DNA of 64,000 bases, taken from the IMG/VR virus record IMGVR_UViG_3300042465_005116, positions 96,001 through 160,000 of that record. The stretch is one strand, 5' to 3'. Below are positions 3,418-41,131 of this stretch, in pieces. A program made the position numbers and the translations under genes. Under the pieces are notes generated by a model that was not told where the DNA came from, ran no database searches, and worked only from the letters and a program-made list of their open reading frames with translations. Source of the DNA: a virus (taxonomy: Duplodnaviria; Caudoviricetes). The first letter of the stretch is position 1. Each line of letters opens with the position of its first letter.

Positions 3418-5133
3418 CTATTTTATTTTTTTCTTAACGATGTAGTTGTTAAGAACTAACGTATCCATATCACAATCTAAAAACGTATCTATTGCATCTT
3501 TAGGGGTGTTTACAATGGTCTTATCTTTAACGTTAAATGATGTATTCAAAACAATTGGATACCCATTATCCTCTTCTAATTGTCTAAGCAAGGAATATAC
3601 TCTACGATGTTGTTTAAAATTTAAAGTTTGTATTCGTGCAGAACCATCTATATGTGTGATAGCAGGTAGATTTTTTATATGTTCTTCTTTTACCTGAACT
3701 ACCTGATTCATATAAGGAACTAATGGTTTGTAATCAAAGTATTTTAATCTGTCTTCCTCTTTTACAATTGGAGCAAATGGTCTAAATCCTTCTCTTTTCT
3801 TAATTACCTTGTTTACCCTTGCTTTCATTTGAGGGTCTCGCGGGTTAGCAAATATAGAACGATTACCGAGTGCTCTTGAACCAAATTCCATTCTACCCTC
3901 GTACCAACCGATAACGTTACCATTTGTAATTTCTCTAGAAATTGTTTTAACAATCTGCGAATGATTTTTAAATTCATACCATACTTCATTTTCATAGTTT
4001 TTTAATTCAGTTTCAATTTCATCATTAGTATTAAACGTACCTAAATACGGATTTGTATTTGGAACTCTAACGGCGGATTCGGTATGGGTATAATAGTAAT
4101 TCAGTGCACATCCAATAGCAGAACCTGCATCAGATGGAGCAGGTGGAATCCATAATTGTTTATAACCTGTATTTTTTAAAATCTTACCATTTGCAGTTCC
4201 GTTATATGCACATCCACCACTTAGACACAAATTGTTTGTGGCCCTAATAGCAAACATTTTATTTAATAATCTAAAAAATAGAAATTCGTATTGATGTTGA
4301 ATTGTTGCTGCTAAATCTTTATGTTCTTGTGTTAATTCATCCTCTGGTAATCTATTAGGAAGTTCAAACAACTCCGCTAATTTTTCATTAAACATTGAAT
4401 TATTCGAATAATCATATGTAAAATAATTCATATTGATTTCAAACCCACCATCTTCCGTTAATTTATATAATTGTTTAAATTTATTTAAATACGTTTCTGA
4501 ATTACCATATGGTGCTAAACCCATTACTTTATACTCACCTTCATTTGGTTTAAATCCTAAGAAAGCTGTCATTGTAGAATATAACATTCCTAATGAATGT
4601 GGGAATTTAATATTTTGTAATTTTGTAATATTCTTACCTTCTGCAAATGCTAAAACAGTAGTTTCCCATTCACCCACCCCATCTACTGATAATATGGTTG
4701 CTCTTTCAAACGGAGATGTGTAATAGGAATATGCTATATGTGATAGGTGATGGTCACCATATGCTAAGATTATATTTGGATTTGTAATCTCATATATTTT
4801 AGATTCAATTTCTTTAGCCTGTTCTTTATTTGAATCAATAATAGATTTTCGTTTAAAGAAATTAACTAATCCACCTCTTTTAGTAGATTCTTCAATTCGT
4901 TCTAATTTTAATTTAGGGTTTTCGTAAAAGGTAACAACTGATATATCATCACCTGTTATTTTATTATCCTTATACAACCAATTGATAGCATTAGTTGGAA
5001 ATGTGGAATCATGTTTTACTCCTGTAAAACGTTCTTCCTCCATTGCACCAATAACCAACCCATCTAATATTAATGCCGCTGAAGAATCATGATAACCACA
5101 TGCTATACCTAAAATATATTTTTTATTCATCAT
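3418..5133 (-). CDS. carbamoyltransferase, NodU/CmcH family
   Basis: HDSSAAL..EEERF, HHLSH, DGVGE, GEYKVMGLAPYG, LSGGCAYN, DAGSAIG, GSRALGNRSI, LNTSFN. Confidence 0.95.
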   Translation of the reverse strand: MMNKKYILGIACGYHDSSAALILDGLVIGAMEEERFTGVKHDSTFPTNAINWLYKDNKITGDDISVVTFYENPKLKLERIEESTKRGGLVNFFKRKSIIDSNKEQAKEIESKIYEITNPNIILAYGDHHLSHIAYSYYTSPFERATILSVDGVGEWETTVLAFAEGKNITKLQNIKFPHSLGMLYSTMTAFLGFKPNEGEYKVMGLAPYGNSETYLNKFKQLYKLTEDGGFEINMNYFTYDYSNNSMFNEKLAELFELPNRLPEDELTQEHKDLAATIQHQYEFLFFRLLNKMFAIRATNNLCLSGGCAYNGTANGKILKNTGYKQLWIPPAPSDAGSAIGCALNYYYTHTESAVRVPNTNPYLGTFNTNDEIETELKNYENEVWYEFKNHSQIVKTISREITNGNVIGWYEGRMEFGSRALGNRSIFANPRDPQMKARVNKVIKKREGFRPFAPIVKEEDRLKYFDYKPLVPYMNQVVQVKEEHIKNLPAITHIDGSARIQTLNFKQHRRVYSLLRQLEEDNGYPIVLNTSFNVKDKTIVNTPKDAIDTFLDCDMDTLVLNNYIVKKKIK

Positions 5134-15948: not shown

Positions 15949-16605
15949 TTAAATAAGTTTTGATTTAGTAATCAATTCTGAATAAGGTTTCCAATTATCT
16001 CCTTTTCTAATTATTGAATAGGGTTTCCAATTCACTCCCATTTGAATATATTGTAACTCTGCATTACATCTATTTGTAATATCAACATTACTTATGTCTA
16101 TTGTTTTAGCGTATTGTCCAGTCATCCACCAAAAATTACCAGAGTACATTATATTTGTAGGGTTACTTGCTACTTCTAATAAAAAACCATATGTGTTAAA
16201 AACTTCATTATCCAAAATTCCAAATACGTTATCAATATATTGAATATTATGTAATTGCATTACATTTCTCCATCGGATAGATTCAGAATCGGTTTGTTTA
16301 GATGCCCCCTTTGTGTGTAGATAAAAAATATAATCATTATTATTAAATGATGATTTATCTCTTTCTATTAAATTTAAAGTTACAAACTCATTATTCATTA
16401 ATTTAGTATCACCAATTATAATTTTTGAATCATACTCATACATTAATTTGATTATATCGTCTACTGAATTATTATTTTCTGATATTGAGATGCCAATAGT
16501 TAATGAGTATGGTTGATTAATATATTTTTTTATTAATGCAAGTTGTTCATGTATTATAGATTCAACCCCCTCTATTGCATAGATGTGATAATATATCCGT
16601 ATCAT
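15949..16605 (-). CDS. glycosyltransferase-like protein
   Basis: IYYHIY, YIFYLHTKG, YSGNFWW pattern; family assignment tentative. Confidence 0.45.
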   Translation of the reverse strand: MIRIYYHIYAIEGVESIIHEQLALIKKYINQPYSLTIGISISENNNSVDDIIKLMYEYDSKIIIGDTKLMNNEFVTLNLIERDKSSFNNNDYIFYLHTKGASKQTDSESIRWRNVMQLHNIQYIDNVFGILDNEVFNTYGFLLEVASNPTNIMYSGNFWWMTGQYAKTIDISNVDITNRCNAELQYIQMGVNWKPYSIIRKGDNWKPYSELITKSKLI

Positions 16606-17648
16606 ATTAAATTCGTATGGGTAGTATCAATAAATTCGTATAGGTTATGAAATAGATTTGTATTTCTACCTATCTTATTAAATTCTTTTTTAAATAATTC
16701 ATGTTCTGGGTGATTAGAATCCCAAACTTGTTTTAATTTAAATTCCGCTTCAGAAAATGTTCCCCAATTAGTTATTTTACCAAAAAAAACATTTACCTTT
16801 TTGCCAAAAATAGAATACATTATATTATAAAAGGTTTCCATTTCCATATAGTTACTATCTTGAACAACAAACGAAGTCTTTACCGATTTTAATGTTTTTA
16901 TTGTAGAAATAAAATTTAAATTATTTATTAAAGTATCCCATTTACCACCTAATCTGGTTTTATTTTCATAGGTGTCACGTGTTCCGGCATCTATTGATAT
17001 CTCACAAGATGTTACATACTTATGCACATTTGGCATACTATCCCACATTTCTTTTGTCCACATTGATGCGTTTGTGTGGAAATGTATTCTTGTTAATTTT
17101 GGATATTTTTTTGGATTAAAATTTCTTAAATAATTTCTAAAACTAACCGAAACAAATGGGTCGCCTGTCCCCGTGATGTACAAAGTTTTAACGTTTGCTG
17201 AATAGTAGGTATCAATTTCATCTATTGTTTTTTCTATTCGTTCTATTCCTTTACTGCTTTCAACAATTAAATCTACTCTGCACGATGGACATTTATAATT
17301 ACAAGTCCTATCAAAATTCATTATAACATTAGTCGGTGTATTTGGTTCAACGATTGGAGTTGTATACTTTGAATTTGATTTTAAAGTAATTGGACCAGAT
17401 ACTACACTATCTGATAATAATTTACTTAAATATGGACATAATTCTTTGTTACAATATTTAAATGAACCATCTAATATAGAATTTCTAATATCAATGATTG
17501 GTTCACTATTATATACATCTTTTAAAGGATACTCACTAAGTTCTATTTTATTTGGCAACCAGGATGGACAACAAACAAACCCAACATTATTATGTATTTC
17601 TAAAGTAGTAAATGGAGTACTACAGGTGTATTGTTTTAAATCTATCAT
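16602..17648 (-). CDS. radical SAM protein with N-terminal SPASM/twitch-like domain
   Basis: C..PF...CC...YC....CP, then CNYKCPSC, TGTGDPF, ISIDAG. Confidence 0.88.
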   Translation of the reverse strand: MIDLKQYTCSTPFTTLEIHNNVGFVCCPSWLPNKIELSEYPLKDVYNSEPIIDIRNSILDGSFKYCNKELCPYLSKLLSDSVVSGPITLKSNSKYTTPIVEPNTPTNVIMNFDRTCNYKCPSCRVDLIVESSKGIERIEKTIDEIDTYYSANVKTLYITGTGDPFVSVSFRNYLRNFNPKKYPKLTRIHFHTNASMWTKEMWDSMPNVHKYVTSCEISIDAGTRDTYENKTRLGGKWDTLINNLNFISTIKTLKSVKTSFVVQDSNYMEMETFYNIMYSIFGKKVNVFFGKITNWGTFSEAEFKLKQVWDSNHPEHELFKKEFNKIGRNTNLFHNLYEFIDTTHTNLI

Positions 17649-18139
17649 AATAATTTTTCGATATTACTTCTACTTCCCTTGCGTAATCTATCTGAATGGG
17701 TTCTATCATATATATCTTCGTAATAAGTAATTGGTATATTAAGTTTAAATGCCAATTCGTTCAAATCATTATTCCATTTTAAAATATCATTATAACATAA
17801 TTCAAATATATCAGACGGAACTTCTTCGTAGTAATATGGATTATTTGAATTATAGTTTTTTGTTTTTGAAAAATAAGTTTGGTATGCATGAGATTCTGCA
17901 CATTCTAATATATTTTTTCTAGATAATAATATTACTCTATCGAACTCCTTACTTAATTGAAAATTGTTTGGATGATGACATATTATTGTTTTGAGGATTA
18001 CATTCTTTTCACCATTATATTGAACTCTACCACTTCCATCAAATGGTTCAAATAACGGAGTTAATCCATTTTCTTTTGCTAATTTATGTAACAAAGAAGT
18101 CGAACCGGTTCTGGGTAATGCAATTATTAATATACTCAT
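17645..18139 (-). CDS. sulfotransferase-like P-loop protein
   Basis: IALPRTGSTSL (PAPS 5'-PSB-like), FEPF, LSRKN, TYYEDI. Confidence 0.65.
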   Translation of the reverse strand: MSILIIALPRTGSTSLLHKLAKENGLTPLFEPFDGSGRVQYNGEKNVILKTIICHHPNNFQLSKEFDRVILLSRKNILECAESHAYQTYFSKTKNYNSNNPYYYEEVPSDIFELCYNDILKWNNDLNELAFKLNIPITYYEDIYDRTHSDRLRKGSRSNIEKLL

Positions 18140-18654
18140 ATGATATTAAATTTTGCTTTCTTTTTAGAAAACCATATTATCAATACATCTCGTTCCCCAC
18201 TAATTATCTTTTTTACCTCGTGGGATTCACTACCGCCGTTAAACACAACATAATCTCCTTCATTTTTTAATGATACGTTTTTATCATTTATATACATTTC
18301 ACCACCTGTAAAATCAGATGATAATAGGATACTAATCGTCTTATGTGTTGTAAATCTATCTTTATGTTTTTTAGCATAACCATTTTCACCATATATCAAT
18401 CTATGCATTATATATAAGTTATCAATTGGTTCTTCAAATTTATTACAAATAAATTCATTTAAATTTTTATTTTCTAAAGTATATACCCAACTATTATTTG
18501 GAAAAAGAGAAACACCTTCATCTTTTTTAAGATGGGTTGCAAAATACAATTGAGGGTGGGATGCTTTTATGTATGCTAAGTCTTCCTCATTCATTATTCT
18601 AGTAGTACTTAATTCTGATTTTAAAAAAAGTAAATCTTCTGTTGATAATTTCAT
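18136..18654 (-). CDS. 2OG-Fe(II) oxygenase
   Basis: HKD, FTGGE, HEVKKI..GER. Confidence 0.8.
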   Translation of the reverse strand: MKLSTEDLLFLKSELSTTRIMNEEDLAYIKASHPQLYFATHLKKDEGVSLFPNNSWVYTLENKNLNEFICNKFEEPIDNLYIMHRLIYGENGYAKKHKDRFTTHKTISILLSSDFTGGEMYINDKNVSLKNEGDYVVFNGGSESHEVKKIISGERDVLIIWFSKKKAKFNII

Positions 18655-19283
18655 ATAAGTTTATTTTTTTTATTTTCAAATTCTACAACCAATTCGTCTA
18701 TATTTAAAAATTGGTGGAGTTTAAGATAAAAATCATAACAACCTTTTGAACCGGGATGCCAATCTATCGGGTCACCACCTTCATCTGCTATAGAAGTTAC
18801 TTTTATTAATTCTACAAACTCCTTTGTCTTTTCATAAAAATCATCGTTCCATGTTACAAAGATTGGTTCATATTTTTTATAAAAATATTTTAATTTTTTA
18901 ATAAATAATATTTCAGAATCCCTATCCCCATTATGCCAATGTTCAGTTTCTTTGACCCTTAGTTCTAATAGTTTTTTAGCAAACGATTTATCACTATACC
19001 ATTCCCAATTTAAATATTTTAAGTTGTGATTTGTATCTCTTTCCCCAAAATATCTTCGTGGGAATCTGCCGGGTGCGGTAAATACTATAACTAATCTATC
19101 GCCTTCTACATAATTTGGTATATTTCCAGTTTGATATAATATAGAATTATTGTCAGACCCAAATTTTCCCAATTTAATAACATTATAATGATTAGATAAA
19201 TAATCTGTCCAATGTATTTCTGGTAAATCCCAATCTACAAAACTATCACCACAAATGTATATGTTATTTTTTTTATTTGACAC
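18651..19283 (-). CDS. SGNH-like protein
   Basis: ICGDSF, LGKFGSDN, DWHP. Confidence 0.65.
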   Translation of the reverse strand: MSNKKNNIYICGDSFVDWDLPEIHWTDYLSNHYNVIKLGKFGSDNNSILYQTGNIPNYVEGDRLVIVFTAPGRFPRRYFGERDTNHNLKYLNWEWYSDKSFAKKLLELRVKETEHWHNGDRDSEILFIKKLKYFYKKYEPIFVTWNDDFYEKTKEFVELIKVTSIADEGGDPIDWHPGSKGCYDFYLKLHQFLNIDELVVEFENKKNKLI

Positions 19284-19813
19284 TATATAATAGTTTTATT
19301 TGTTGGGCTATTTCCTTTTCTTAATCGGCCGGGCCCATTTAAATCAAATATATCTTCGTAATATGTTATAGGTATATTAATACTTTTAGAAATAAATTCT
19401 AAATCAGTATGATACGAAAGAACTTGTTCATATCTCCATTGGTCATGTGGAGTAGTCTTCCAAAGATAATTTTCATAAAACATAAATTTTTTCATATCAT
19501 GATAATAATTTAAATAAGCCCAACTTTCTCCACACGCTTTTAAATCTTTTCTTGATAATAAAATAACTTCATCAAATTCTTTTGTTAAATTTATTAACCA
19601 CTCAATCCTATCTTCTTGTTTAATTTCATCCAAACTTTGAAAAACAAGTGTTTTAACTACAATATTATTTTCGTTAGAATTATATCTTTCAATACCAATG
19701 CTTAGTGGATTAAATGGTTCAAATAAATATTTTTTTATATTGTATTTTTTTCTCATCGTTTCCCCTAAACTCGTAGAACCTGTTCTCGGTAATGCAATTA
19801 TTAAAATTTTCAT
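19283..19813 (-). CDS. sulfotransferase-like P-loop protein (paralog of 17645-18139)
   Basis: IALPRTGSTSL, FEPF, LSRKD, TYYEDI. Confidence 0.65.
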   Translation of the reverse strand: MKILIIALPRTGSTSLGETMRKKYNIKKYLFEPFNPLSIGIERYNSNENNIVVKTLVFQSLDEIKQEDRIEWLINLTKEFDEVILLSRKDLKACGESWAYLNYYHDMKKFMFYENYLWKTTPHDQWRYEQVLSYHTDLEFISKSINIPITYYEDIFDLNGPGRLRKGNSPTNKTII

Positions 19814-20376
19814 AACAATGTTTTATTAGATTTTAATTTAGGATAATCAAAATCAGTTTCCGTCATCCAAATATTTAATGCGTAACGCGTACCACTTACA
19901 ACTGGTAGTACTCCATGATAAGTAGTCGAACCATTAAATGATATGGAATCTCCTAATTTCAAATCGGATAGTGTTAATCCATTTAATGTTTCAAAATGAT
20001 AAGGAGGATTCACATCTTCGGTTAAAGCAAATTGACCCCCTTCAAAATTATCAGAAAGAACAATTACTGTGGTTAATTCACTTGATTTATCCTTATGTAG
20101 ATTAAGATATCTACCATCATAATATGAAGTTAGACTGATATTAAAATTCTTTAAATTAAATGATAGGTAATCAAACCATAATTTAAAGTTTCCGTTTTTA
20201 TAATTATCGGTTAATAAATTAATTATTCTTTTTTTAAATTCTTCATCATACATTCTTCTACAATCCCAATGTTCGGTTGGACTATATGAAAAGGGTTCAC
20301 CAAATTTAAGACAAAAATCAATTATATCATTGGCAGTTTCTCTATTACAAAAATTATTATTTATGGTATAATTCAT
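19810..20376 (-). CDS. 2OG-Fe(II) oxygenase
   Basis: LHKD, FEGG, HGVLPV.SGTRY. Confidence 0.82.
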   Translation of the reverse strand: MNYTINNNFCNRETANDIIDFCLKFGEPFSYSPTEHWDCRRMYDEEFKKRIINLLTDNYKNGNFKLWFDYLSFNLKNFNISLTSYYDGRYLNLHKDKSSELTTVIVLSDNFEGGQFALTEDVNPPYHFETLNGLTLSDLKLGDSISFNGSTTYHGVLPVVSGTRYALNIWMTETDFDYPKLKSNKTLL

Positions 20377-21194
20377 AATAGATGCGAATTTTTTGGTTTA
20401 GTATGTGTTAATAAATTACCTTCACTTATAAATTTATATAATTCATCGGCAATTAATTTATATCCATTATTACTTGGATGTTTACCTGCGGTAGTACTTA
20501 TCCAATTATTACCATCCTCCCATACATCTTTTCTATTGGTATCAATTAATAAATTTGCCATTGTTTTAGTTTGATAACCCCAATATTTATCACTCTCGAT
20601 TAAATTGGTTTTATCAACTAACTTATGAATATTTTTATTAATCATTATATCAAACGCGTCACAAAAAAGATATCTGATTCCTAATTCTTTAAATATAAAT
20701 TGAAGATGTAAAATATAGTTTTGATTCACTATATCATAGTAAGTATCATTGAATAAATTACCTATGTAATAATCTCTAAAATTTTTTTCCGCCCTATTAT
20801 AGTTTATATTATCACTATTAACTCCATCAAAAATATACTTTAAAAGGTGTTCTTTACTTTTATATCGTTTGCCCCATATAAAAAAATCATCTTTGGTTGG
20901 GAAAAAAGGTAACGGGTCTCTTAGAGAAGATGACCACATAATAACAACAAAATCATCTTGAGTGATGATTTCATTTTTTAACTGATAAGATACTGCGTTA
21001 AATATTGCATTATTTGAGAATGCACCAACTCCATTATTTTTAACTTCACATTTTAATAGTTCTGATAAGTGTTTCGGCCAACAATATTTTTGTCTTATTA
21101 TTGTCCTTTGTTCTGGATTATCAGTAGTATATTCATCTTCAATATTTCCACCAACCCCCTCAGTCCAACTATCCCCAAAGGTAAACAATTTCAT
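20373..21194 (-). CDS. SGNH-like protein
   Basis: FGDSWTEG, NGVGAFSN, HPSNNGY. Confidence 0.68.
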   Translation of the reverse strand: MKLFTFGDSWTEGVGGNIEDEYTTDNPEQRTIIRQKYCWPKHLSELLKCEVKNNGVGAFSNNAIFNAVSYQLKNEIITQDDFVVIMWSSSLRDPLPFFPTKDDFFIWGKRYKSKEHLLKYIFDGVNSDNINYNRAEKNFRDYYIGNLFNDTYYDIVNQNYILHLQFIFKELGIRYLFCDAFDIMINKNIHKLVDKTNLIESDKYWGYQTKTMANLLIDTNRKDVWEDGNNWISTTAGKHPSNNGYKLIADELYKFISEGNLLTHTKPKNSHLL

Positions 21195-21205
21195 AATGCA
21201 TAATA

Positions 21206-21349
21206 TTAAAGATGTGTTTCTTTAATTTTAGCTACAACTGCTTGAAATGCAGATGCTATTTTTGTTTTAACATCGGTTGATAAAGAACCAATAACCGGTT
21301 TAATAACGGTAAGTGGTCTTTCTTCTTTAATTTTTGGTGTCTTTGCCAT
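21206..21349 (-). CDS. 47-aa basic peptide
   Basis: MAKTPKIKEERPLTVIKPVIGSLSTDVKTKIASAFQAVVAKIKETHL*; not in ORF track. Confidence 0.55.
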   Translation of the reverse strand: MAKTPKIKEERPLTVIKPVIGSLSTDVKTKIASAFQAVVAKIKETHL

Positions 21350-21379
21350 AATATTTTTTTATTTTAATTTTTATTTTAA

Positions 21380-22867
21380 TTAAAGTTTAGGTGGGAGCCC
21401 TTGATTACAAACCGGACACCAGCTACTACAAGGACCAGACCCGCAATAATAACTACCACATCCCCAACAACCATTATGCATCACACTAAATACTCCATCT
21501 CCTATATCCGCTAAAAATAAATCACCTGGTTCAAAGTCTAATGAATATATTGTTTTATATTCAAACACCATTTCTAATCCAGTAATTTCAATGGTTGTTA
21601 ATTCATTTGTATTTATATCGGTTACAACTAATTTATCGCCAATATATAAACTATTTACTTTTTCAAATCTAGTTGCGGTTGAATCTTTTTCTTCAATATA
21701 ATACACACATGATGGAGTATCACTCCAAGTTTTACCATCTGCAAGTGTTATCTGTATCATTACCGTTTCAACTGATGCAGATACCATTGCCGTTAATTCG
21801 GATTGTAATGATGTTAAGGTATCGTTTGATTGCTGTAGTGTACTATCCCATCCATATGTCACTATTTCATTTGTAAAAGCTTTAGCTTCATTTTCATTTG
21901 AATCTATAAAATTTATAGAACGAACATGGTCACCTAATTGTATAGTACTAACATTTGTTAATGAACCATCATAGTTTAGGATATTTGAATCATCATCGGT
22001 ATGGTAATCGTTCTCAGTTTTACCTATTTCCTTTGTAATATATTTATATCTTGTTTTTTGATTTAATTTTTTGGTGCCAGTAACAAATTCATCAGCGGTA
22101 AACGAAACTGGTATTATTGAAGATTGAGTGTATCCACCCATATTAATAATATCTAAATTTGAACCATATATAATATCAATTCCTCTTATAATTGAGTATC
22201 TACCGTCTACCAAATTATCCTCTGAAAATATGAATTCTTGTATTAAATAATTACTTTCCGTTAAATTTATGGTATCAACTAATTCAGTATTATTTGAAAC
22301 TGTATATAATGCAGGATATTGTGTTTTATCGTACTGAGGATAACGATATTTTATTAATATGTTTGGATTTGTGGTAGTAGTATAATCTACTTCATCTAAT
22401 GTATTTAAATTTAATGTATCAGATGTATAATTCGTTTTTGGAATATACCCCGAATCTTTCATTAAATTAAAAAATTCAAATTTATCAGCACAATACGTTT
22501 CATCCACTAATGCGGTTGTATCAAACGCCTGTCTTAAAATAAATTTAGTATCAGTATCTTCTATAAATGGTACAGTAACCGAACCTTGCGGTACAGCATG
22601 GTCAATATATGTTATATTATTTTCTACACATTTTTCTTGTAATATTTTTTTAAATCTATTTGGTTGATTTAAGGGTTTGTGTGAATCGCCTTCTGTCCAT
22701 ATATAATGGAACTCAGTAATATTATTACTACTTAACATATTGAATAACGTAGTATAATCTAATAAATCTGCACCATCATTATAAATTGTGGTATTTGTGT
22801 TTATTTCTAAAAACTTAACCGAATTATTTTTTTGTAGATAATCACTACCAATTATTGTTGCTTTCAT
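21380..22867 (-). CDS. circularly permuted ATP-grasp-like domain + Hint domain + Cys-rich C-terminal peptide
   Basis: N-terminal D..KFLEINTN, ILIK, YLIQEFI; Hint-like DGSLTNVSTIQLGDHV...IYSLDFE...VMHN; tail with six Cys. Confidence 0.65.
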   Translation of the reverse strand: MKATIIGSDYLQKNNSVKFLEINTNTTIYNDGADLLDYTTLFNMLSSNNITEFHYIWTEGDSHKPLNQPNRFKKILQEKCVENNITYIDHAVPQGSVTVPFIEDTDTKFILRQAFDTTALVDETYCADKFEFFNLMKDSGYIPKTNYTSDTLNLNTLDEVDYTTTTNPNILIKYRYPQYDKTQYPALYTVSNNTELVDTINLTESNYLIQEFIFSEDNLVDGRYSIIRGIDIIYGSNLDIINMGGYTQSSIIPVSFTADEFVTGTKKLNQKTRYKYITKEIGKTENDYHTDDDSNILNYDGSLTNVSTIQLGDHVRSINFIDSNENEAKAFTNEIVTYGWDSTLQQSNDTLTSLQSELTAMVSASVETVMIQITLADGKTWSDTPSCVYYIEEKDSTATRFEKVNSLYIGDKLVVTDINTNELTTIEITGLEMVFEYKTIYSLDFEPGDLFLADIGDGVFSVMHNGCWGCGSYYCGSGPCSSWCPVCNQGLPPKL

Positions 22868-22931
22868 AAATATTTTATTTATTTCTTCTGAATGTATCTA
22901 TAAATATATTAAAATTGAATTTAAGACCATT

Positions 22932-23234
22932 TTAAATGATGGTGGGATTTTTTTTAATTTCTAGAGGTTCTAAATAGTTAGAATCAACTTCATTCCATTT
23001 TTTTAATCCACATGCATTATAAGTTGTTGAAAATACTTTTTTATTCAATGGACACCCACATTCACCACAATATGCACTCCATTTTATTCCCTTTATTACT
23101 TCCTTTCTATAATCACATCCTAAACAAACATCAAGTCTTAATTTAGCTAATTCCTCTTGTTGAATATTTGGGTTGTATGAAATTTTCCAAGCTTCAAATA
23201 TTTCTTTATAATTAATCTTAGGTATAAGGGGCAT
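22932..23234 (-). CDS. small Cys-rich metal-binding protein
   Basis: CLGC, CGECGC, C..KKW. Confidence 0.65.
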   Translation of the reverse strand: MPLIPKINYKEIFEAWKISYNPNIQQEELAKLRLDVCLGCDYRKEVIKGIKWSAYCGECGCPLNKKVFSTTYNACGLKKWNEVDSNYLEPLEIKKNPTII

Positions 23235-23235
23235 A

Positions 23236-23973
23236 TTATATTAATGTTTTATTATTTTTTTGAATATCGTAATAATCATAAATATCGTTATATTTTTTTA
23301 TAAACTCATCATTTAATTTTAATTCACATTCAAAGTGTTGACTTCCGTTTGATTTTTCCATTTTAAATGGTTTACCGGTTTTATTAGATACCCATTCCTC
23401 TAATTCTCCAAAATTTCCAAATTCAAACCATTTTATTCTTTTGTTATTATTATGCCAATATGATACCGGCCGGAATAAAATTAATAAAATATTTTCCATA
23501 TAATCATCAACATACTTTTCTATTCCATTTCTTTTTGTAAATTCTTTAATTACTAACATTTGAGAAGTTGGTGAGATTAAATCTAAATCTTTAAAAAATA
23601 ATATATCATCTATATTTAATTTTTTAAGTACATTTACTAATTCGGTTGGATATTTTATACGTTCCATTTCGACCAAATCAATTATATGTTTCCACAATGA
23701 AATGAATCGTTCATATCTATTTCTTTTAATTGTTATAATGTCATATTCATTTCCAAATTTGGTAATCAAACCATTTAATGATTCATGACTATGTACCATA
23801 TAATCGGCCAACTCCTCATTACTCATAGATAAATCTATTCTACTCTTCCATTTATTAATGAATTTTTGGTCAAGATATTTTATATCAAATTCACTTCTTA
23901 AACATGATATATAAAAAGAAGTTGATGCACATCTTGGTAATGAAATAAATAAAAATTTATTCTCTACTAACAC
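23236..23973 (-). CDS. sulfotransferase-family-like protein
   Basis: LFISLPRCASTS, RNRYERFISLW. Confidence 0.6.
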   Translation of the reverse strand: MLVENKFLFISLPRCASTSFYISCLRSEFDIKYLDQKFINKWKSRIDLSMSNEELADYMVHSHESLNGLITKFGNEYDIITIKRNRYERFISLWKHIIDLVEMERIKYPTELVNVLKKLNIDDILFFKDLDLISPTSQMLVIKEFTKRNGIEKYVDDYMENILLILFRPVSYWHNNNKRIKWFEFGNFGELEEWVSNKTGKPFKMEKSNGSQHFECELKLNDEFIKKYNDIYDYYDIQKNNKTLI

Positions 23974-24611
23974 TATATTAACGATTTTTGGTTTTTAATA
24001 AAATCAAATCCAACATTACCTGCCATAACAATTCTATCTAACGTTGAATTTGATGCAGCATTTGGAGAATGTGGAACATCTGCCTTCATTATAATTAAAT
24101 CATCTTCTTCTGGTCTTATCCAATATTCCTTATCTTCTTTTGATTTAAAATATAAAACACCGTCATCACCATTCATTATATCTGGCATTTGAATGTAATA
24201 AACGTATGTATAGTGTGGAATAAAGTCTTTATTTTTTTTATTAATTTCGGTATGTATATGATATTTTTCATCAGTATAAAAATTTTCTTGTACAGGATTT
24301 TTAGAACGAACTACATTTACCCAAGCATCTGTATTAATCTTATTATAATTTATACCGATTTCATTATAAATTTCTTTACATTTATTAATACCAATTTGAA
24401 CAATTTCATCCAATTTTGTTTCTACCTTAATATCACCAATAAAATTTAAATGTTCATTCCATTCTTTTTTATAACCAAACCCATCAGTTTTAACATTAGG
24501 CTGGGATTCTATAATAGAATATGCCTCTTTTAAAAACAATTGTTTATCACTTATTCGATTTAATTTTACTTTCCAAATATAAGTTGTCTCATCAAAAAAT
24601 ATCTTTTCCAT
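23973..24611 (-). CDS. 2OG-Fe(II) oxygenase-like
   Basis: WVNV, HIH, YVYY, PHSP...RIV.AGN. Confidence 0.7.
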   Translation of the reverse strand: MEKIFFDETTYIWKVKLNRISDKQLFLKEAYSIIESQPNVKTDGFGYKKEWNEHLNFIGDIKVETKLDEIVQIGINKCKEIYNEIGINYNKINTDAWVNVVRSKNPVQENFYTDEKYHIHTEINKKNKDFIPHYTYVYYIQMPDIMNGDDGVLYFKSKEDKEYWIRPEEDDLIIMKADVPHSPNAASNSTLDRIVMAGNVGFDFIKNQKSLI

Positions 24612-24617
24612 ATTATA

Positions 24618-25253
24618 TTAATTTAGTTTTTTATAAAATATATCAGCTAATTCTTTATGACCTACTTCAGAAAAATGGGCATCGTTAATTACGCCATTAG
24701 TTTCATCTTGTAATCTATTTAATAAAGTTCCCACATACCAATCTGTTGGTAGTAATTGTTTTTTAAGATGAACATCAGTACATAAAGCAAAGGGTGACCA
24801 AAAAATAACTTTAATGCCTTTTAATTTAAATATAGTACTAAGTAATTTAGACCAATTAACTATTTCATCCCAATATAACCTACTCATCCTATTAATCCGA
24901 ATTTGCTCTAATGTATTTGTATCAATAAATTTATGTAATTCTAATTCAGATTGTACATGTCGAATAGTAACCCATTTGTTATTTTTTTCTAATCGAAATC
25001 GGGAAGGATGTGACCAACCTATTATAACAATATCACCACTATTTATCGTGTCCATTTTAGTAATAATAGTGTCAAATATAGTATTATTATCTGCACCTCC
25101 AACACCTAGTTGAATAACATCAGTATTTAACATGATTGCTAAATGGTCTGAAAATATTTTTGGGGTATAACCTTTCCATTCACTATATTGTTTACCCAAC
25201 CCACCTTGTTTTTCCCATGTTGTGGAAAATGAATCACCAAATACCCAAATCAT
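24618..25253 (-). CDS. SGNH-like protein
   Basis: VFGDSFS, GVGGADN, DAHFSEVGH. Confidence 0.68.
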   Translation of the reverse strand: MIWVFGDSFSTTWEKQGGLGKQYSEWKGYTPKIFSDHLAIMLNTDVIQLGVGGADNNTIFDTIITKMDTINSGDIVIIGWSHPSRFRLEKNNKWVTIRHVQSELELHKFIDTNTLEQIRINRMSRLYWDEIVNWSKLLSTIFKLKGIKVIFWSPFALCTDVHLKKQLLPTDWYVGTLLNRLQDETNGVINDAHFSEVGHKELADIFYKKLN

Positions 25254-25813
25254 AAAAGATTTTGTTTTGTTGAATTAGTTTTAACTAATGATATCCAATT
25301 TACTAATGAATATCTAATGCCGGCTCTGATGGGAGTTACCCTATGTGTTAATCTCGAATTAAAAATATATAATGTTCCAATTTTATTTTCTATTGGTACT
25401 AACTCACCTTTAAGGTTTTTAATTTCTAATACACCACCTTCATATGAATTATTTAATTGAATTACTATCGATGTAAATCTATCTCTATATATAGTATCGG
25501 TACTATCGACATGCCAATCAAAATATTCACCTTCTTTATATTCAGTAAATTGAAAATCTCCCAAACCAGTAACTTCCATTCCATTTATATTGAAAGTTTC
25601 TCTTAATTTATTTGTTAATCTTTCATTTAAAAATCCTAAATCAGATATCCAAGCAACCGATGATTTTCTAGTTTTTTTAGTAGGTATGGTATTAGAATCA
25701 CCGGTATATACTTCTGCATCTGATAATGTTAATTCTTTTTTGCAATTATTTAAAATGAAATCACACTCTTCGGGTGATAGAAAGTTTTCAAATATGTCTA
25801 TATTGTCAATCAT
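25250..25813 (-). CDS. 2OG-Fe(II) oxygenase (prolyl-4-hydroxylase-like)
   Basis: WHVD, YEGG.L, HRVTPI..G.RYSLVNW. Confidence 0.88.
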   Translation of the reverse strand: MIDNIDIFENFLSPEECDFILNNCKKELTLSDAEVYTGDSNTIPTKKTRKSSVAWISDLGFLNERLTNKLRETFNINGMEVTGLGDFQFTEYKEGEYFDWHVDSTDTIYRDRFTSIVIQLNNSYEGGVLEIKNLKGELVPIENKIGTLYIFNSRLTHRVTPIRAGIRYSLVNWISLVKTNSTKQNLL

Positions 25814-36258: not shown

Positions 36259-36262
36259 ATAG

Positions 36263-36336
36263 TGGACCAGATAGGATTCGAACCTATGACCTCAACATTA
36301 TGAGTGTTTTGCTCTAACCAACTGAGCTACAAGTCC
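36263..36336 (-). tRNA. tRNA with CAT anticodon (Met elongator or Ile2)
   Basis: cloverleaf, loop CTCATAA, GGTTCGAATCC. Confidence 0.88.
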
Positions 36337-36474
36337 ATTATCGTTTAATCTAACGATAAAATCTGATATCGTTTCTTTCAACGATAAAAAATAAGCAGGT
36401 GTGGAATCACCTACTTATATAGTGAATGAGAAACATATGAATCTCTTGCGGCTATATCACCAAAGCCCATTAGG

Positions 36475-36588
36475 TGCCGGAGGAAGGATTGGTTACCTAC
36501 ACGATTTCCTTACGGAGTAATCAACTTTTTACAAAGTCACGTCTCAAGGTTTACTACCCAAAGGGAATGCTCTTTCCGCCACTCCGGC
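36475..36588 (-). ncRNA. expanded tRNA-like RNA (114 nt)
   Basis: acceptor-like stem GCCGGAG/CTCCGGC+A; type-II-like 5' end; degenerate T arm. Confidence 0.6.
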
Positions 36589-36604
36589 ATATATCTTTTT
36601 TTTG

Positions 36605-36678
36605 TGGAGGTGATAGGAGTCGAACCTACTACCCTCTGCGTGCAAGGCAGATGCTCTAGCCAAATGAGCTACACCCCC
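36605..36678 (-). tRNA. tRNA-Ala(TGC)
   Basis: cloverleaf GGGGGTG...CACCTCCA. Confidence 0.95.
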
Positions 36679-36792
36679 CCAATTAATGTAATGTCTGTAC
36701 GGTTTGTATCTTATCCACACTTTTATTGTGTTTCATTAGTTTCCATTTCATACTTAGCGTCCGTTCCGTCATTCTTTCGAATCATTACATCG

Positions 36793-36878
36793 TACCAGAG
36801 GTGGGAGTCGAACCCACACGAGCGATTTATGCTCAACAGATTTTAAGTCTGTCATGTCTACCATTCCATCACTCCGGC
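36793..36878 (-). tRNA. tRNA-Leu(TAA)
   Basis: type II cloverleaf, loop CTTAAAA. Confidence 0.95.
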
Positions 36879-36894
36879 ATTTATTCTAATTATC

Positions 36895-37329
36895 CTAATT
36901 TAGTTTACTTAATATTACCCCATTAAGTTTAGTATGATTATCATCTGGATTTATTAATATATCGATTTTATTTTTCCATCGCGGATTCATTAAATCCCTA
37001 ACGTAGTAAACTCCATTGTATTTTCCAGCATTTGACACTCTTACTTTTTCACCAAATTTAAATTTCTTTTTTATATCTCTACTTACTGCAATCACTCTAT
37101 GTTTTTTAGGATTATCCTCATCTAATTCAAAGCCACTCGCCGTTTCTAACGGAGTATCATCAGTTTGTAAAGGGTCAATTGTATATGTAGTCATCGTAAC
37201 AACAAATTTCTTAATTTCCTTAACAACCTCTTCCTTTACCATAGTTTCGATTTTGAATGGATTGGGTGGGGTTACATTTGATGGTAGGATTACCGCAGTA
37301 ATTAATAATATCAATATTAATCTTTTCAT
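36895..37329 (-). CDS. 3D-domain (DPBB) cell-wall-binding/lytic protein
   Basis: signal peptide; TASG, VIAVSRD, VRD, KIDIL. Confidence 0.8.
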   Translation of the reverse strand: MKRLILILLITAVILPSNVTPPNPFKIETMVKEEVVKEIKKFVVTMTTYTIDPLQTDDTPLETASGFELDEDNPKKHRVIAVSRDIKKKFKFGEKVRVSNAGKYNGVYYVRDLMNPRWKNKIDILINPDDNHTKLNGVILSKLN

Positions 37330-37368
37330 AATTTACATTTATGGTTAATAATAACTATTACACTTTTG

Positions 37369-37442
37369 TGATTCGGAAAGGATTCGAACCTTTGGCCTAT
37401 TCATTAGAAGTGAATTGCTCTATCCAACTGAGCTACCGAACC
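37369..37442 (-). tRNA. tRNA-Arg(TCT)
   Basis: cloverleaf, loop CTTCTAA. Confidence 0.95.
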
Positions 37443-37615
37443 AAATCGTTGTTTCAACTTGCAAGTTTACTCTTAACATCTCTTTCTCTACAACGTCTGA
37501 ATTTAATCAACATTTGTAGTCCGAATGTAGCTTCTGGGTAATTACTCCAATGCTTCTATGTAACTCTATATAACTTACTTTGTTACTAAGTGTGTTAAGT
37601 GTATGAAACAACTTG

Positions 37616-37689
37616 CGGAATGTATGGGACTCGAACCCATGACCTCATCCGTGACAGGGATGCATTCTAACCAACTGAACTAACACTCC
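37616..37689 (-). tRNA. tRNA-Asp(GTC)
   Basis: cloverleaf, loop CTGTCAC, G73. Confidence 0.95.
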
Positions 37690-37694
37690 AAATG

Positions 37695-37767
37695 AGCCTC
37701 CTGTCGGATTCGAACCAACGACCCCTTCATTACAAGTGAAGTGCTCTACCAACTGAGCTAAGGAGGC
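37695..37767 (-). tRNA. tRNA-Thr(TGT)
   Basis: cloverleaf, loop CTTGTAA. Confidence 0.95.
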
Positions 37768-37855
37768 GTTTGATAGGTGACCCTCCTATCGTGAAACTAT
37801 ACATCGTTTCTTTTCTTTATAGAACTCTATTCAGAGAACTGCTGGAACATTTTTG

Positions 37856-37927
37856 TACTCCCAACGGGATTCGAACCCGTATTACTACCGTGAAAGGGTA
37901 GTGACCTAACCATTAGTCGATAGGAGC
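37856..37927 (-). tRNA. tRNA-Glu(TTC)
   Basis: cloverleaf, loop CTTTCAC. Confidence 0.95.
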
Positions 37928-37945
37928 ATATAATTTTATAACAAT

Positions 37946-37979
37946 GTAAAGATACGAAGAATATTCCACATATCCAAAT
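37946..37979 (-). promoter_or_regulatory. Bacteroidota-type promoter inside tRNA array
   Basis: TTTGGA...TTCGTATCTTTAC. Confidence 0.65.
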
Positions 37980-38441
37980 TTAATTGTGTATTTTTACTAA
38001 GTGGTCAGCAGCATAAGTTGCTATTGGCCCTAATGATTTATATCTTACTGAATACCCCATACCTTCAACCATACCCACTGCTTGTCTAAACACTTCGTTA
38101 GATTTAAAGCGTGGGTCTGGGTTCAAGTCAATATCAATCCACTTAGGTTTTGGAATACCAGCCTCGCGTAATTCTTCGGCAGTTTCAATTGCAAACCAAA
38201 CTTCTTGTAATAATCTAACTGAACGGATTCTTTCTCTTTCACTATTCCATCTTCTATACAATACATGTGCACCCTTTCCTTTTCTATATAAGGCAACTAC
38301 GATTGCATAAATAGTTTTGTTACCTGAATTTTGTGAATCACAACCAATTAAGATTTCTGCATCGGTATTCGTAATCATATATTCTTTGATATATGAAATC
38401 AATTCCACTTCTTCTGCCGTATACAATTTTTTATAAACCAT
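37980..38441 (-). CDS. RNase H-like YkuK (DUF458) family protein
   Basis: IGCDSQ, RLLQEV, IDID.N, ATYAAD. Confidence 0.8.
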   Translation of the reverse strand: MVYKKLYTAEEVELISYIKEYMITNTDAEILIGCDSQNSGNKTIYAIVVALYRKGKGAHVLYRRWNSERERIRSVRLLQEVWFAIETAEELREAGIPKPKWIDIDLNPDPRFKSNEVFRQAVGMVEGMGYSVRYKSLGPIATYAADHLVKIHN

Positions 38442-38461
38442 AATTTTACCTTTTTATTTTG

Positions 38462-38536
38462 TACCCATAGTAGGACTCGAACCTACAATTGTGTGGTGTC
38501 TAAAGCCACTGCGTATTCCAATTCCGCCATACGGGT
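38462..38536 (-). tRNA. tRNA-Leu(TAG), short variable region
   Basis: 75 nt, loop TTTAGAC, Leu-type D arm. Confidence 0.8.
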
Positions 38537-38545
38537 ATATTTCAG

Positions 38546-38631
38546 CAGAGAGTGAGGGGCTCGAACCCTCGCGGCTTTAACACCCTAACGATTTAGCAAA
38601 CCGTCCCCTTCACCAACTTGGGTAACTCTCT
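38546..38631 (-). tRNA. tRNA-Ser(GCT)
   Basis: type II cloverleaf, G73. Confidence 0.93.
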
Positions 38632-38633
38632 AT

Positions 38634-38710
38634 TGGGGTGATTAATGGGATTCGAACCCATACTATCAGTACCACAAACTGACGTGCTAACCATTAACAC
38701 TATAAACACC
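38634..38710 (-). tRNA. tRNA-His(GTG), with G-1 and encoded CCA
   Basis: loop TTGTGGT, C73-CCA. Confidence 0.93.
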
Positions 38711-38715
38711 ATATG

Positions 38716-38785
38716 TTGCGTGTTTGAGGTTTGAACTCAATTGGTCATCCTTATGAGAGATAACTCTTTTCCACTAAGCCACGCA
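38716..38785 (-). tRNA. degenerate 70-nt tRNA(CAT), possibly pseudogene
   Basis: T arm and CTCATAA loop intact; about 3 nt short between acceptor and D stem. Confidence 0.55.
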
Positions 38786-38790
38786 ATGTG

Positions 38791-38862
38791 AGGCGGGTAT
38801 TGGATTCGAACCAATGTTAAAGGTTTTGCAGACCTCCTCCTAACCACTCGAGACAACTCGCC
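38791..38862 (-). tRNA. tRNA-Cys(GCA)
   Basis: cloverleaf, U73. Confidence 0.93.
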
Positions 38863-38927
38863 ATTATTTGTTGTTCACTTTTTTTGTTTGTTCACCGATA
38901 GTGAACACTCTAAATTTGTGAACATTG

Positions 38928-39000
38928 TAGTTCCATAAGGACTCGAACCCTAACTTTTTCATCCGTAGTGAAAGGTGCTATCCAATTACACCATAGAACT
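38928..39000 (-). tRNA. tRNA-Arg(ACG)
   Basis: loop CTACGGA. Confidence 0.93.
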
Positions 39001-39006
39001 ATTTTG

Positions 39007-39077
39007 CACCCCCTGAAAGATTCGAACTTTCATCTGCGGTTTTGGAGACCGATATGCTACCATTGCACCAAAGAGAT
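39007..39077 (-). tRNA. tRNA-Trp(CCA)
   Basis: loop CTCCAAA; G-U-rich acceptor. Confidence 0.88.
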
Positions 39078-39139
39078 GTATTATTAGTGTTCCAAAACTC
39101 TATTTTTTTGTTAGATTTGGAACACCAATAACCAAATTG

Positions 39140-39213
39140 TTGGTAATGCGGGATTCGAACCTGCCACCTTCTCGGTATCAGCGAGATGCTCTAACCAAAT
39201 GAGCTAATTACCA
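39140..39213 (-). tRNA. tRNA-Ile(GAT)
   Basis: loop CTGATAC. Confidence 0.93.
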
Positions 39214-39219
39214 ATGTTG

Positions 39220-39295
39220 TCGGATAAGCAGGATTCGAACCTGCGTGCTCCACATCCCAAATGTGGCGAGATAGACCTGACTCCTCTACTATCCG
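39220..39295 (-). tRNA. tRNA-Pro(TGG)
   Basis: C1-G72, loop TTTGGGA. Confidence 0.93.
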
Positions 39296-39301
39296 TTATT
39301 G

Positions 39302-39375
39302 TGAACCCGAATGGACTCGAACCATTGACTCCCTCATTAAAAGTGAGGTGCTCTAACCAACTGAGCTACGAGTTC
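39302..39375 (-). tRNA. tRNA-Lys(TTT)
   Basis: loop CTTTTAA. Confidence 0.95.
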
Positions 39376-39381
39376 ATTCTG

Positions 39382-39454
39382 TGGAGAAAGTTGGTTACGC
39401 TCCAACTCCTGTGGATTTTCAGTCCACTGCTTCTACTAAGTTAGCTTCTTCTCC
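39382..39454 (-). tRNA. tRNA-Phe(GAA), non-canonical T loop
   Basis: loop CTGAAAA; T arm GTTGG-AGCGTAA-CCAAC. Confidence 0.85.
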
Positions 39455-39461
39455 TATTAAG

Positions 39462-39543
39462 TGCCTGCAGATGGACTCGAACCACCGAACTCCGAAGAGA
39501 GGAGATTTACAGTCTCCAGCAATTGCCACTATGCGATACAGGC
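39462..39543 (-). tRNA. tRNA-Tyr(GTA)
   Basis: type II cloverleaf, loop CTGTAAA. Confidence 0.95.
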
Positions 39544-39589
39544 TAATTGAGTTGTATTCCAAATTCGAATTTGGAATAATTTCAAATTG

Positions 39590-39663
39590 TAGAAGATATA
39601 GGATTCGAACCTATGACCCTTTGGATGTAAACCAAATGCTCTAACCAACTGAGCTAATCTTCT
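39590..39663 (-). tRNA. tRNA-Val(TAC)
   Basis: loop TTTACAT. Confidence 0.93.
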
Positions 39664-39669
39664 ATGTTG

Positions 39670-39741
39670 TTACTCGAATAGGATTCGAACCTATACTACA
39701 TCAGTCAAAGTGAGGTATGCTAACCATTACACCATCGAGCA
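39670..39741 (-). tRNA. tRNA-Gln(TTG)
   Basis: loop CTTTGAC. Confidence 0.9.
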
Positions 39742-39748
39742 ATTTATG

Positions 39749-39820
39749 AGCGGATGATAGGAATCGAACCTACGTCTCCTACTTGGAAGGAAGGAGTAAT
39801 AACCATTATACGACATCCGC
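39749..39820 (-). tRNA. tRNA-Gly(TCC)
   Basis: loop CTTCCAA, U73. Confidence 0.95.
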
Positions 39821-39838
39821 ATGTCAAAGAACCAATTG

Positions 39839-39910
39839 AGGGAAGGGAGAATTTCGAAATCTCGACCTGATGATTAACAGTCATCTGCTCTGCCTCTGAG
39901 CTACCATCCC
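39839..39910 (-). tRNA. tRNA-Asn(GTT)
   Basis: loop CTGTTAA. Confidence 0.9.
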
Positions 39911-39916
39911 ATAAAC

Positions 39917-39952
39917 GAAAAAACCCTTAACTTTTTTATCAGTTAAGGGTTC
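39917..39952 (-). terminator. attenuator-type intrinsic terminator directly upstream of tRNA array
   Basis: minus strand AACCCTTAACT-GATAAAA-AGTTAAGGGTT followed by T tract. Confidence 0.85.
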
Positions 39953-39981
39953 TTAAAATATTGTTATAAAATTTTTACATT

Positions 39982-41095: not shown

Positions 41096-41131
41096 TGTTT
41101 CGATAATTTAAAGAACTTTTTTTTGTTAAGT

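Follow-up and report, generated by a model that had tools for sequence, protein, structure and literature searches.

A phage fusion of a circularly permuted ATP-grasp ligase, a degenerate Hint domain and a six-cysteine tail with a predicted self-cleaving junction

The gene described here lies at positions 21,380 to 22,867 on the minus strand of a 64,000-nucleotide stretch of viral DNA (IMG/VR record IMGVR_UViG_3300042465_005116, positions 96,001 to 160,000), hereafter the window. The open reading frame (ORF) list and the translation confirmed a single ORF of 495 codons, and its product is a fusion of three parts: a circularly permuted ATP-grasp ligase (residues 1–283), a Hint domain of the C-terminal-cleavage-only type (residues 290–465), and a 30-residue tail containing six cysteines (residues 466–495). 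On balance, comparative evidence inclines us to a reading in which the protein would fold, Asn465 would cyclise, and a 3.1-kDa peptide would be released that later acquires three disulfides. An AlphaFold (AF2) model of the full-length protein, built from 146 diverse homologs, reached a predicted local distance difference test (pLDDT) score of 91 and a predicted template modelling (pTM) score of 0.84. An identical layout was found in 570 close homologs, whose length is almost constant, and in 272 representatives at 50% clustering, which is far beyond chance.

The middle domain (21,473–22,000, minus strand) was identified by its fold. Foldseek searches against the PDB returned the Hedgehog autoprocessing domain (1at0) as the best match (E 3.6e-8, TM score 0.77). 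The Mtu RecA mini-intein (TM 0.80), Tetrahymena BIL2 (TM 0.77; BIL, bacterial intein-like), a Clostridium BIL domain and many other mini-inteins were also recovered, with E values of 4e-8 to 1e-5 and TM scores by target of 0.75–0.80. In AFDB, Hedgehog proteins align over residues 290–464. Moreover, some relatives carry additional, canonical Hint modules, and hhalign matched the profile of the core Hint domain to these modules over 136 columns (probability 98.6%, E 1e-15). The core domain itself falls below every Pfam Hint threshold.

Column counts over the family indicate which steps of Hint chemistry would be left. The position of Cys1 is taken by His289, in a variable column (H 61, K 18, G 17, and others) in which neither Cys nor Ser is in the majority. 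The block-B Thr and His positions correspond to T384 and C387 and are both variable, the latter with S 57, A 21, T 21, and C 17. The block-F His position is Asp449 (D 105 and H 25 in 146 sequences), and the +1 residue is Gly466, in a column of A 29, S 18, G 15, P 14, V 11, and Y 10. The terminal His-Asn dyad is retained, with H464 in 139/145 and N465 in 144/145 sequences; its codons occupy 21,473–21,478 (minus strand). Conservation, the divergence boundary and the pattern of His loss described below all mark Asn465|Gly466 as the predicted scissile junction. Because Cys1, the block-B His and a +1 nucleophile are all missing, the core Hint domain is predicted to be capable of neither the N-S acyl shift nor splicing, and Asn cyclisation alone would remain to it. 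This step can run alone as C-terminal cleavage, without the N-terminal steps, aided by the penultimate and block-F His residues (PMC4031507). The initial annotation, made from the sequence only, had described a Hint-like domain that lacks Cys1 and the block-B His and ends in His-Asn followed by Gly; fold, hhalign and column counts all agree with that description. The motif losses and the retained dyad are likewise in accord with its assignment to the type of Hint domain that would carry out C-terminal cleavage only.

The closest known counterparts are BIL domains and inteins (PMC4031507; PDB 2lwy, 6y75/6tmm), which share the fold (TM 0.77–0.80), the terminal His-Asn and cleavage without a +1 nucleophile. 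They retain the N-terminal Cys or Ser and the block-B Thr and His, however; the phage domain has lost both, and Asp mostly stands in place of its block-F His. The Hedgehog domain is similar in that it is a Hint domain that processes its own carrier and does not splice. Its cut is made at the N-terminal Cys by way of a thioester, and a terminal His-Asn reaction is absent from it; the phage Hint domain would be its mirror case.

What follows the His-Asn dyad differs strongly between relatives, and architectures were counted over 116 representatives. A Cys-rich peptide of 13–60 residues is found in 54 of these and a longer Cys-rich segment in another 18. One or two complete Hint modules come immediately after His-Asn in 15 representatives, and in a further eight a linker, Cys-rich in six of them, leads to a complete Hint module. 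In ten, a segment (Cys-rich in nine) precedes a Peptidase_S74-type self-cleaving chaperone. Seven have a vestigial tail of 3–7 residues, three have other architectures, and one additional entry is a truncated sequence. In the classes in which a Hint or S74 module follows, the Cys-rich segment is thus enclosed by two self-cleaving junctions, an arrangement that is hard to explain unless the segment is excised. Further evidence came from the vestigial tails. The penultimate His is lost in three of the seven members with such tails, against 3/108 members with a real payload (Fisher p 0.003), and this concentration links the predicted catalytic dyad to the payload.

The C-terminal Hint modules of these relatives score with Pfam PT-HINT, Vint and Hint, and they are canonical, having Cys1, block-B T-x-x-H, block-F NHNF and a terminal HN. 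In seven members (P0234, which belongs to locus L006, and P0248, P0258, P0259, P0260, P0265 and P0269) one or two motif-perfect modules were observed at the extreme C-terminus, where they end in HN plus only K or KK. These terminal modules have no +1 nucleophile and therefore are not inteins. They would form a thioester at the junction directly after the core His-Asn.

The tail (21,383–21,472, minus strand) runs from GCWGC to PPKL, and with its stop codon it fills 21,380–21,472, exactly the extent given by the initial annotation. Released and reduced, the peptide would have a mass of 3110.6 Da. In the model the tail is unstructured (pLDDT below 50). Relative to the core it is enriched in Cys (30-fold), Trp (2.8-fold), Pro (2.1-fold) and Tyr (1.35-fold). 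Close homologs share the scaffold C-x(1-2)-C-x4-C-G-x(2-3)-C-x(3-4)-C-x2-C, with variable loops rich in Trp, Tyr, Gly and Ser, and a penultimate Lys is present in 84% of them. The initial annotation had asked whether tails are hypervariable in homologs, and it is the loops that were found to vary on this fixed Cys scaffold. Almost every tail has an even number of cysteines, as do 15/15 Cys-bearing linkers; among distant tails the figure is 71/72 (binomial p 3e-20) and among close tails 120/120. Zn(Cys)4 sites are a poor fit to counts of 6, 10 and 14, and the formation of thioethers would not require any parity. For these reasons the simplest reading of the parity suggests that the tail cysteines are paired as disulfides. 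Ten different payloads were compared with known Cys-rich domain families and none matched; a weak Fer4_3 hit at E 0.86 was not significant.

Sequence divergence was followed in 59 viral loci related to this one. Nucleotide identity in the closest pairs stays at about 100% for the 360 nt up to the His-Asn codons, drops to 0.63–0.77 in the tail of roughly 80–90 nt, and returns to 0.9–1.0 in the next gene. In close pairs, nonsynonymous divergence (dN) is 0.21 in the non-Cys codons of the tail and 0.03–0.04 in the core, a difference of about fivefold, and synonymous divergence (dS) is raised as well. The changes appear as multi-nucleotide blocks in the loops together with synonymous changes, and all substitution types were seen. 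Strict positive selection on the tail was rejected, since dN/dS stays below 1 and dS is inflated. Targeted mutagenesis of the diversity-generating retroelement (DGR) type was also considered; a template repeat, that is, a second copy of the tail-coding segment, was not found in the window and no A bias was present, and this candidate was therefore dropped. With dN/dS below 1, dS inflated and the changes arranged in blocks, the data suggest that the tail evolves by allelic or cassette replacement and not by point-mutation selection. The payload would thus be an exchangeable cassette bounded by the His-Asn codons.

The N-terminal part (22,019–22,867, minus strand) belongs to the circularly permuted ATP-grasp amide ligases. 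Modelled alone, residues 1–283 gave a pLDDT of 95. Foldseek placed YjfC (7uk6) at the top of the PDB matches (E 1e-5), with 25 chains of the permuted clade between E 1e-5 and 7e-4; yeast and human glutathione synthetase, glutathionylspermidine synthetase, YgiC and trypanothione synthetase were among the other top matches, and the E-64 ligase Cp1B is also among the nearest folds. An independent aligner, VIA, ranked YgiC first (Z 9.4), and its first 11 rows, with Z from 9.4 to 7.2 and spanning residues 1–282, all came from the permuted clade, which the AFDB fold clusters returned as well. Unpermuted ATP-grasps (RimK, ArgX/LysX, TTLL and Ddl) align with the domain in VIA only from about residue 50. 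This is what is predicted if permutation has moved the Mg-ligand hairpin to the N-terminus. The proposal of a GspS-type permuted ATP-grasp in the initial annotation was thereby confirmed by structure.

The motifs on which that proposal had been built are all present and are conserved in the family: D9...E21-x-N23, ILIK (with K173) and IQEFI (209–213). D9, E21 and N23, the Mg ligands, sit on the first two strands, in a motif that spans residues 9–24. The E-x11-E-x-N-T strand found in biotin carboxylases and Ddl aligns with positions 9–36 of the family profile, at identical spacing in the case of biotin carboxylase; taken singly, each of these matches is weak (E about 1), yet four ATP-grasp families match at this one motif. 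R112, K173 and R228 are invariant candidates for binding the ATP phosphates. Across sequences reaching down to about 20% identity, D9, E21, N23, R112, D122, K173 and R228 are kept in 143–145 of 146. Because these seven site residues are near-invariant at such distances, the domain is almost certainly an active ligase, as judged from conservation.

Curated hidden Markov models (HMMs) for the clade (Pfam GSP_synth, CP_ATPgrasp_1/2 and GSH_synth_ATP) gave no match to the N-terminal domain, and it was therefore filed as a new, minimal branch of the permuted ATP-grasp clade outside any named family. Both folds assigned by the initial annotation thus stand by structure, whereas the Pfam Hint and CP_ATPgrasp matches that it had named as a check were not obtained. 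Like the characterised permuted ligases (GspS, YgiC/YjfC and eukaryotic glutathione synthetase; PDB 2io7, 7uka, 7uk6 and 1m0t), the phage domain begins with the Mg-ligand strand. It differs in its low identity to them (9–16%), in its much smaller size of 283 residues, in the lack of pre-ATP-grasp and amidase domains, and in being fused to a Hint domain.

In glutathionylspermidine synthetase, YgiC, YjfC and glutathione synthetase enzymes, the C-terminal carboxylate of a peptide is activated by conversion to an acyl phosphate. In the reading that we favour, the middle Hint domain would act as a single-turnover asparagine lyase. Asn465 would cyclise to a succinimide and so break the Asn465–Gly466 bond, freeing the 30-residue C-terminal peptide, which would end up with three disulfides. 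The N-terminal ligase would turn a short peptide's C-terminal carboxylate, or a small acid, into an acyl phosphate. Since characterised members of the clade act on peptide C-terminal carboxylates or small acids, the candidate substrates are C-termini: the protein's own ...K-L end, a small protein encoded downstream, or the tagged C-termini of neighbouring enzymes described below. We infer cleavage from four features: the near-invariance of His-Asn before a polymorphic C-terminus, the second self-cleaving module in relatives, the loss of His together with vestigial tails, and the onset of divergence at the His-Asn codons. The self-release put forward in the initial annotation thus has the support of comparative evidence only.

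Several observations count against this reading. Many inteins cyclise their Asn slowly or couple this reaction to earlier steps (PMC4031507), and these earlier steps are impossible for the core Hint domain. The block-F His is replaced by Asp in 105/146 sequences. His-Asn is retained in four members with tails of just 5–7 residues, and its role may therefore extend beyond payload release. A disulfide-rich peptide is odd for a protein that has no signal peptide and is made in a reducing cytoplasm. The dN/dS of the tail remains under 1 (0.25–0.55; core 0.14–0.24). Finally, variants that lack a Cys-rich peptide conserve the ligase just as well, so that the ligase substrate need not be the tail; action of the ligase on the tail is therefore not claimed here.

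A rigid cassette of tailoring-type enzymes (15,949–25,813, minus strand), with the gene at its centre, was recognised from Pfam and NCBIfam scans and from counts of a shared C-terminal tag. It contains four 2-oxoglutarate (2OG)-Fe(II) oxygenases, one twitch-type (twitch/SPASM-type) radical S-adenosylmethionine (SAM) enzyme, three sulfotransferase-like proteins and three GDS(L)-like proteins. The last two labels are mainly at the level of motifs, with weak HMM matches (Sulfotransfer_3 at E 0.16 and Lipase_GDSL at E 0.003–0.05). The sulfotransferase-like proteins (17,645–18,139, 19,283–19,813 and 23,236–23,973, minus strand) are paralogs that start with an LPRTGSTSL or LPRCASTSF motif resembling the loop that binds 3'-phosphoadenosine 5'-phosphosulfate (PAPS). 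Upstream of the fusion gene, 34/37 related loci have a sulfotransferase-like gene and 36/37 a 2OG oxygenase; further oxygenases, sulfotransferase-like and GDS(L)-like genes lie on the downstream side. Some relatives add genes for a Trp halogenase, an Asp/Arg hydroxylase or an adenosine 5'-phosphosulfate (APS)-kinase-like protein, the last of which is found near the cassette in L001. In cyanophages, several unrelated 2OG oxygenases have been described together with Trp halogenases and sulfotransferases in phage-borne arrays, which were read as peptide or metabolite tailoring systems (Iyer et al., 2010; PMC2938197). The present cassette resembles them in these enzymes. Neither an ATP-grasp-Hint-peptide protein nor a shared C-terminal tag was described there.

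Two small ORFs flank the fusion gene. Directly downstream in 40/44 loci is an ORF that in the window encodes 47 residues (21,206–21,349, minus strand), ends in K-x-x-H-L and has no Cys, Trp or Tyr. Across loci it measures 35–47 residues, with homologs in L001, L002, L006 and L007 and an uncalled copy in L004 after a short-tail variant. Directly upstream, in 38/40 loci, is an ORF of 100 residues (22,932–23,234, minus strand) with six cysteines in a zinc-ribbon-like arrangement (CxxC...CxxCxC...C), which had no match in the Pfam and NCBIfam family scans. Once core divergence was removed, neither varied together with the tail: the partial Spearman rho was -0.03 for the downstream ORF over 33 distinct loci and 0.01 for the zinc-ribbon-like ORF. 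A role of the downstream ORF as an immunity protein was rejected on present data because of this lack of covariation.

A further property of the cassette is that its genes end alike. The C-terminal tag [KN]-x-x-[LI]-[LI] was found in 14/15 consecutive cassette genes, against about 6/63 elsewhere in the window (Fisher p 5e-10). It is carried by unrelated folds, namely the radical SAM enzyme, the 2OG oxygenases, the sulfotransferase-like and GDS-like proteins and the zinc-ribbon-like ORF, and in relatives by the Trp halogenase. The tag is also kept in five other loci (L001, L002, L004, L006 and L007) and, counted per family, across 44 loci, and it is absent from the flanking Hsp20 (0/10) and 400-residue membrane protein (0/8). 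The codons of the tag vary and several of the genes stop in TAA or TAG, so selection acts at the protein level. The tag could be a docking or targeting peptide, or a recognition tag for a ligase. Similar ends were also noted far from the cassette, in a second radical SAM protein (44,368–45,510, minus strand; TRALI) and in a 388-residue protein (60,493–61,659, minus strand; PKSLI).

This neighbourhood raises the question of whether the tail is the substrate of the cassette. Graspetides and SCIFF/ranthipeptides are systems for peptides synthesised by ribosomes and modified after translation (RiPPs) that are built on ATP-grasp or radical SAM enzymes. The phage system is similar in that a ribosomal Cys-rich peptide is found beside an ATP-grasp enzyme and, in this phage, a twitch/SPASM-type radical SAM enzyme. 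It differs in that a self-cleaving domain joins the peptide to the enzyme, whereas a RiPP leader is removed by a protease. Moreover, the ATP-grasp domain is of the permuted clade (the graspetide enzyme 7mgv reached only Z 4.8), the radical SAM enzyme is facultative, and Cys parity points to disulfides.

A full RiPP-like precursor, in which the neighbouring radical SAM, 2OG and sulfotransferase-like enzymes, and the Trp halogenase of relatives, would modify the tail before ligase and Hint complete its maturation and release, is possible but doubtful, and it is the alternative that survives best. It would account for the central place of the gene in a rigid cassette of tailoring-type enzymes, for the type of its radical SAM enzyme, and for a tail rich in the residues that such enzymes target (the Cys, Trp, Pro and Tyr enrichment given above); in L001 and L007 a Trp halogenase even adjoins W-rich tails. 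However, the radical SAM gene, which lies 3.7 kb from the fusion gene in the window, is within 6 kb in just 11/28 related loci, and thioether formation leaves the even Cys parity unexplained. Genes for a halogenase and for a sulfotransferase-like and a GDS-type protein still adjoin a member with a tail of five residues, together with the small ORF, and members with Hint modules directly after His-Asn retain, as a minimum, the small ORF with one sulfotransferase-like and one 2OG oxygenase gene. Another protein or a small molecule could equally be what the cassette enzymes target, as has been proposed for the cyanophage dioxygenase arrays (PMC2938197). That the flanking radical SAM and 2OG enzymes mature the tail, as the initial annotation had proposed, was therefore not upheld: the radical SAM gene is often not found within 6 kb, the parity of the cysteines is even, and cassette genes persist beside the five-residue tail.

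Alternatively, the ligase could be the central component, making a small amide or peptide metabolite for the cassette to tailor, with the Hint domain and tail being regulatory only, for example as a cleavable autoinhibitory plug. The nearest folds of the ligase do include small-molecule enzymes (the glutathione synthetases and Cp1B), ligase and cassette persist whatever comes after His-Asn, and neighbourhoods of ATP-grasp with dioxygenase or halogenase genes have been interpreted as metabolite pathways (PMC2938197). We consider this unlikely, since it would leave unexplained both the conserved even-Cys scaffold with its fast-changing loops and the second self-cleaving module that flanks the tail in relatives.

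Equally improbable in our view is that no cleavage takes place. The Hint domain would then be an inert scaffold and the tail a permanent knob, stabilised by metal or disulfides, on a structural or adhesive protein of the virion fibre type, the alternative that the initial annotation had named. Some relatives end in a Peptidase_S74 intramolecular chaperone of the kind that characterises tail fibres and spikes, receptor-binding proteins typically have hypervariable C-terminal tips, and the tail, being unmodelled, is compatible with a metal site. However, a fully conserved ATP-grasp site of the cytoplasmic type fits an extracellular structural protein poorly, and catalysis is favoured by a His-Asn dyad that is nearly invariant and decays where the tail is lost. 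Cysteine counts of 6, 10 and 14 do not suit Zn(Cys)4, the gene stands among genes for enzymes and nucleotide metabolism and not among structural ones, and no PHROG structural family was matched.

A more ambitious proposal extends the favoured reading to a self-contained machine for peptide maturation. The Hint domain would free the N-terminus of the payload and the ligase would activate the carboxylate of its conserved ...K-[LIV] C-terminus to an acyl phosphate. The product could be a cyclotide-like, head-to-tail cyclised peptide of about 30 residues with three disulfides, or a ubiquitin- or Pup-like tag attached to a target Lys. Relatives with a Hint module (through its thioester) or an S74 module would reach a free or activated C-terminus by other means, and the cassette enzymes would dock through their tag. 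As a whole, this chain of steps is given only a small chance of being right.

A Hint domain directly before polymorphic C-terminal modules has been described for bacterial polymorphic toxins (Zhang et al., 2012; PMC3482391). The phage family shares with these PT-HINT toxins an autopeptidase immediately preceding a polymorphic, cassette-exchanged C-terminal module, and some of its members hold modules that score as PT-HINT. In contrast to the toxins, the core Hint domain lacks Cys1 and block B and lies under the Pfam Hint thresholds, and the payload is a 30-residue Cys-rich peptide and not a toxin domain. That the Hint domain releases a variable peptide toxin, with the small gene that directly follows in 40/44 loci encoding its immunity protein, is the least probable explanation: the small ORF does not covary with the tail (partial rho -0.03), the protein has no secretion, filament or trafficking domain and instead starts with the Mg-ligand strand of an ATP-grasp ligase that has no counterpart in polymorphic toxins, and the payloads match neither a known toxin nor a known Cys-rich family.

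The surroundings of the gene are those of a phage. GC content is about 30%, nearly all genes around it share one strand, and a promoter and terminator scan around the gene gave signals no higher than shuffled expectation. The window holds phage replication and nucleotide-metabolism genes together with 24 tRNAs and a transfer-messenger RNA (tmRNA). The tRNA genes, for 20 amino acids, form a dense array (36,262–43,857, minus strand) with the tmRNA, whose tag peptide ends in YAIAA. A NodU/CmcH-type carbamoyltransferase (3,418–5,133, minus strand; PHROG 1601, E 2e-114) was also observed, with a homolog upstream of the cassette in L001. Since a helicase in the window has its nearest relatives in crAss-like, Bacteroides and Cellulophaga phages (34–38% identity), the source element is probably a large uncultured phage with a host in the Bacteroidota.

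Database searches with the whole protein were largely empty. Pfam gave nothing at E up to 1 apart from a spurious FAF1 match, and neither PHROGs nor PDB sequences gave a match. In tblastn the protein found zero matches in 50,697 deposited phage records, and a scan of prokaryotes with one genome per species found no relative. Conversely, the ESM Atlas contains dozens of look-alike clusters with at least 50 members each, every one of which is viral. The family is large and was seen only in phages.

Each part of the protein comes from a known superfamily, and the logic of placing a Hint domain before a polymorphic module is already familiar from polymorphic toxins. What is new is the fusion to a permuted ATP-grasp ligase, a Hint domain stripped to the asparagine-lyase step, payloads of peptide size with even numbers of cysteines, and the tagged cassette. 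In open-access papers and bioRxiv, no description was found of an ATP-grasp-Hint fusion or of a RiPP-like peptide released by a Hint domain.

If cleavage does occur, the protein would be a natural example of a Hint domain reduced to a pure asparagine lyase that releases a ribosomal peptide from the enzyme to which it is fused, and small disulfide-rich peptides would be made without a leader protease. Such a minimal, C-terminal-only self-cleaving domain could also serve protein engineering. The tagged enzyme cassette hints at a new organisation of a modification pathway, and evolution of the payload as an exchangeable cassette marks molecules of conflict or recognition. The family is abundant in uncultured large phages and absent from the deposited phage records, and thus a common phage function would have been overlooked.

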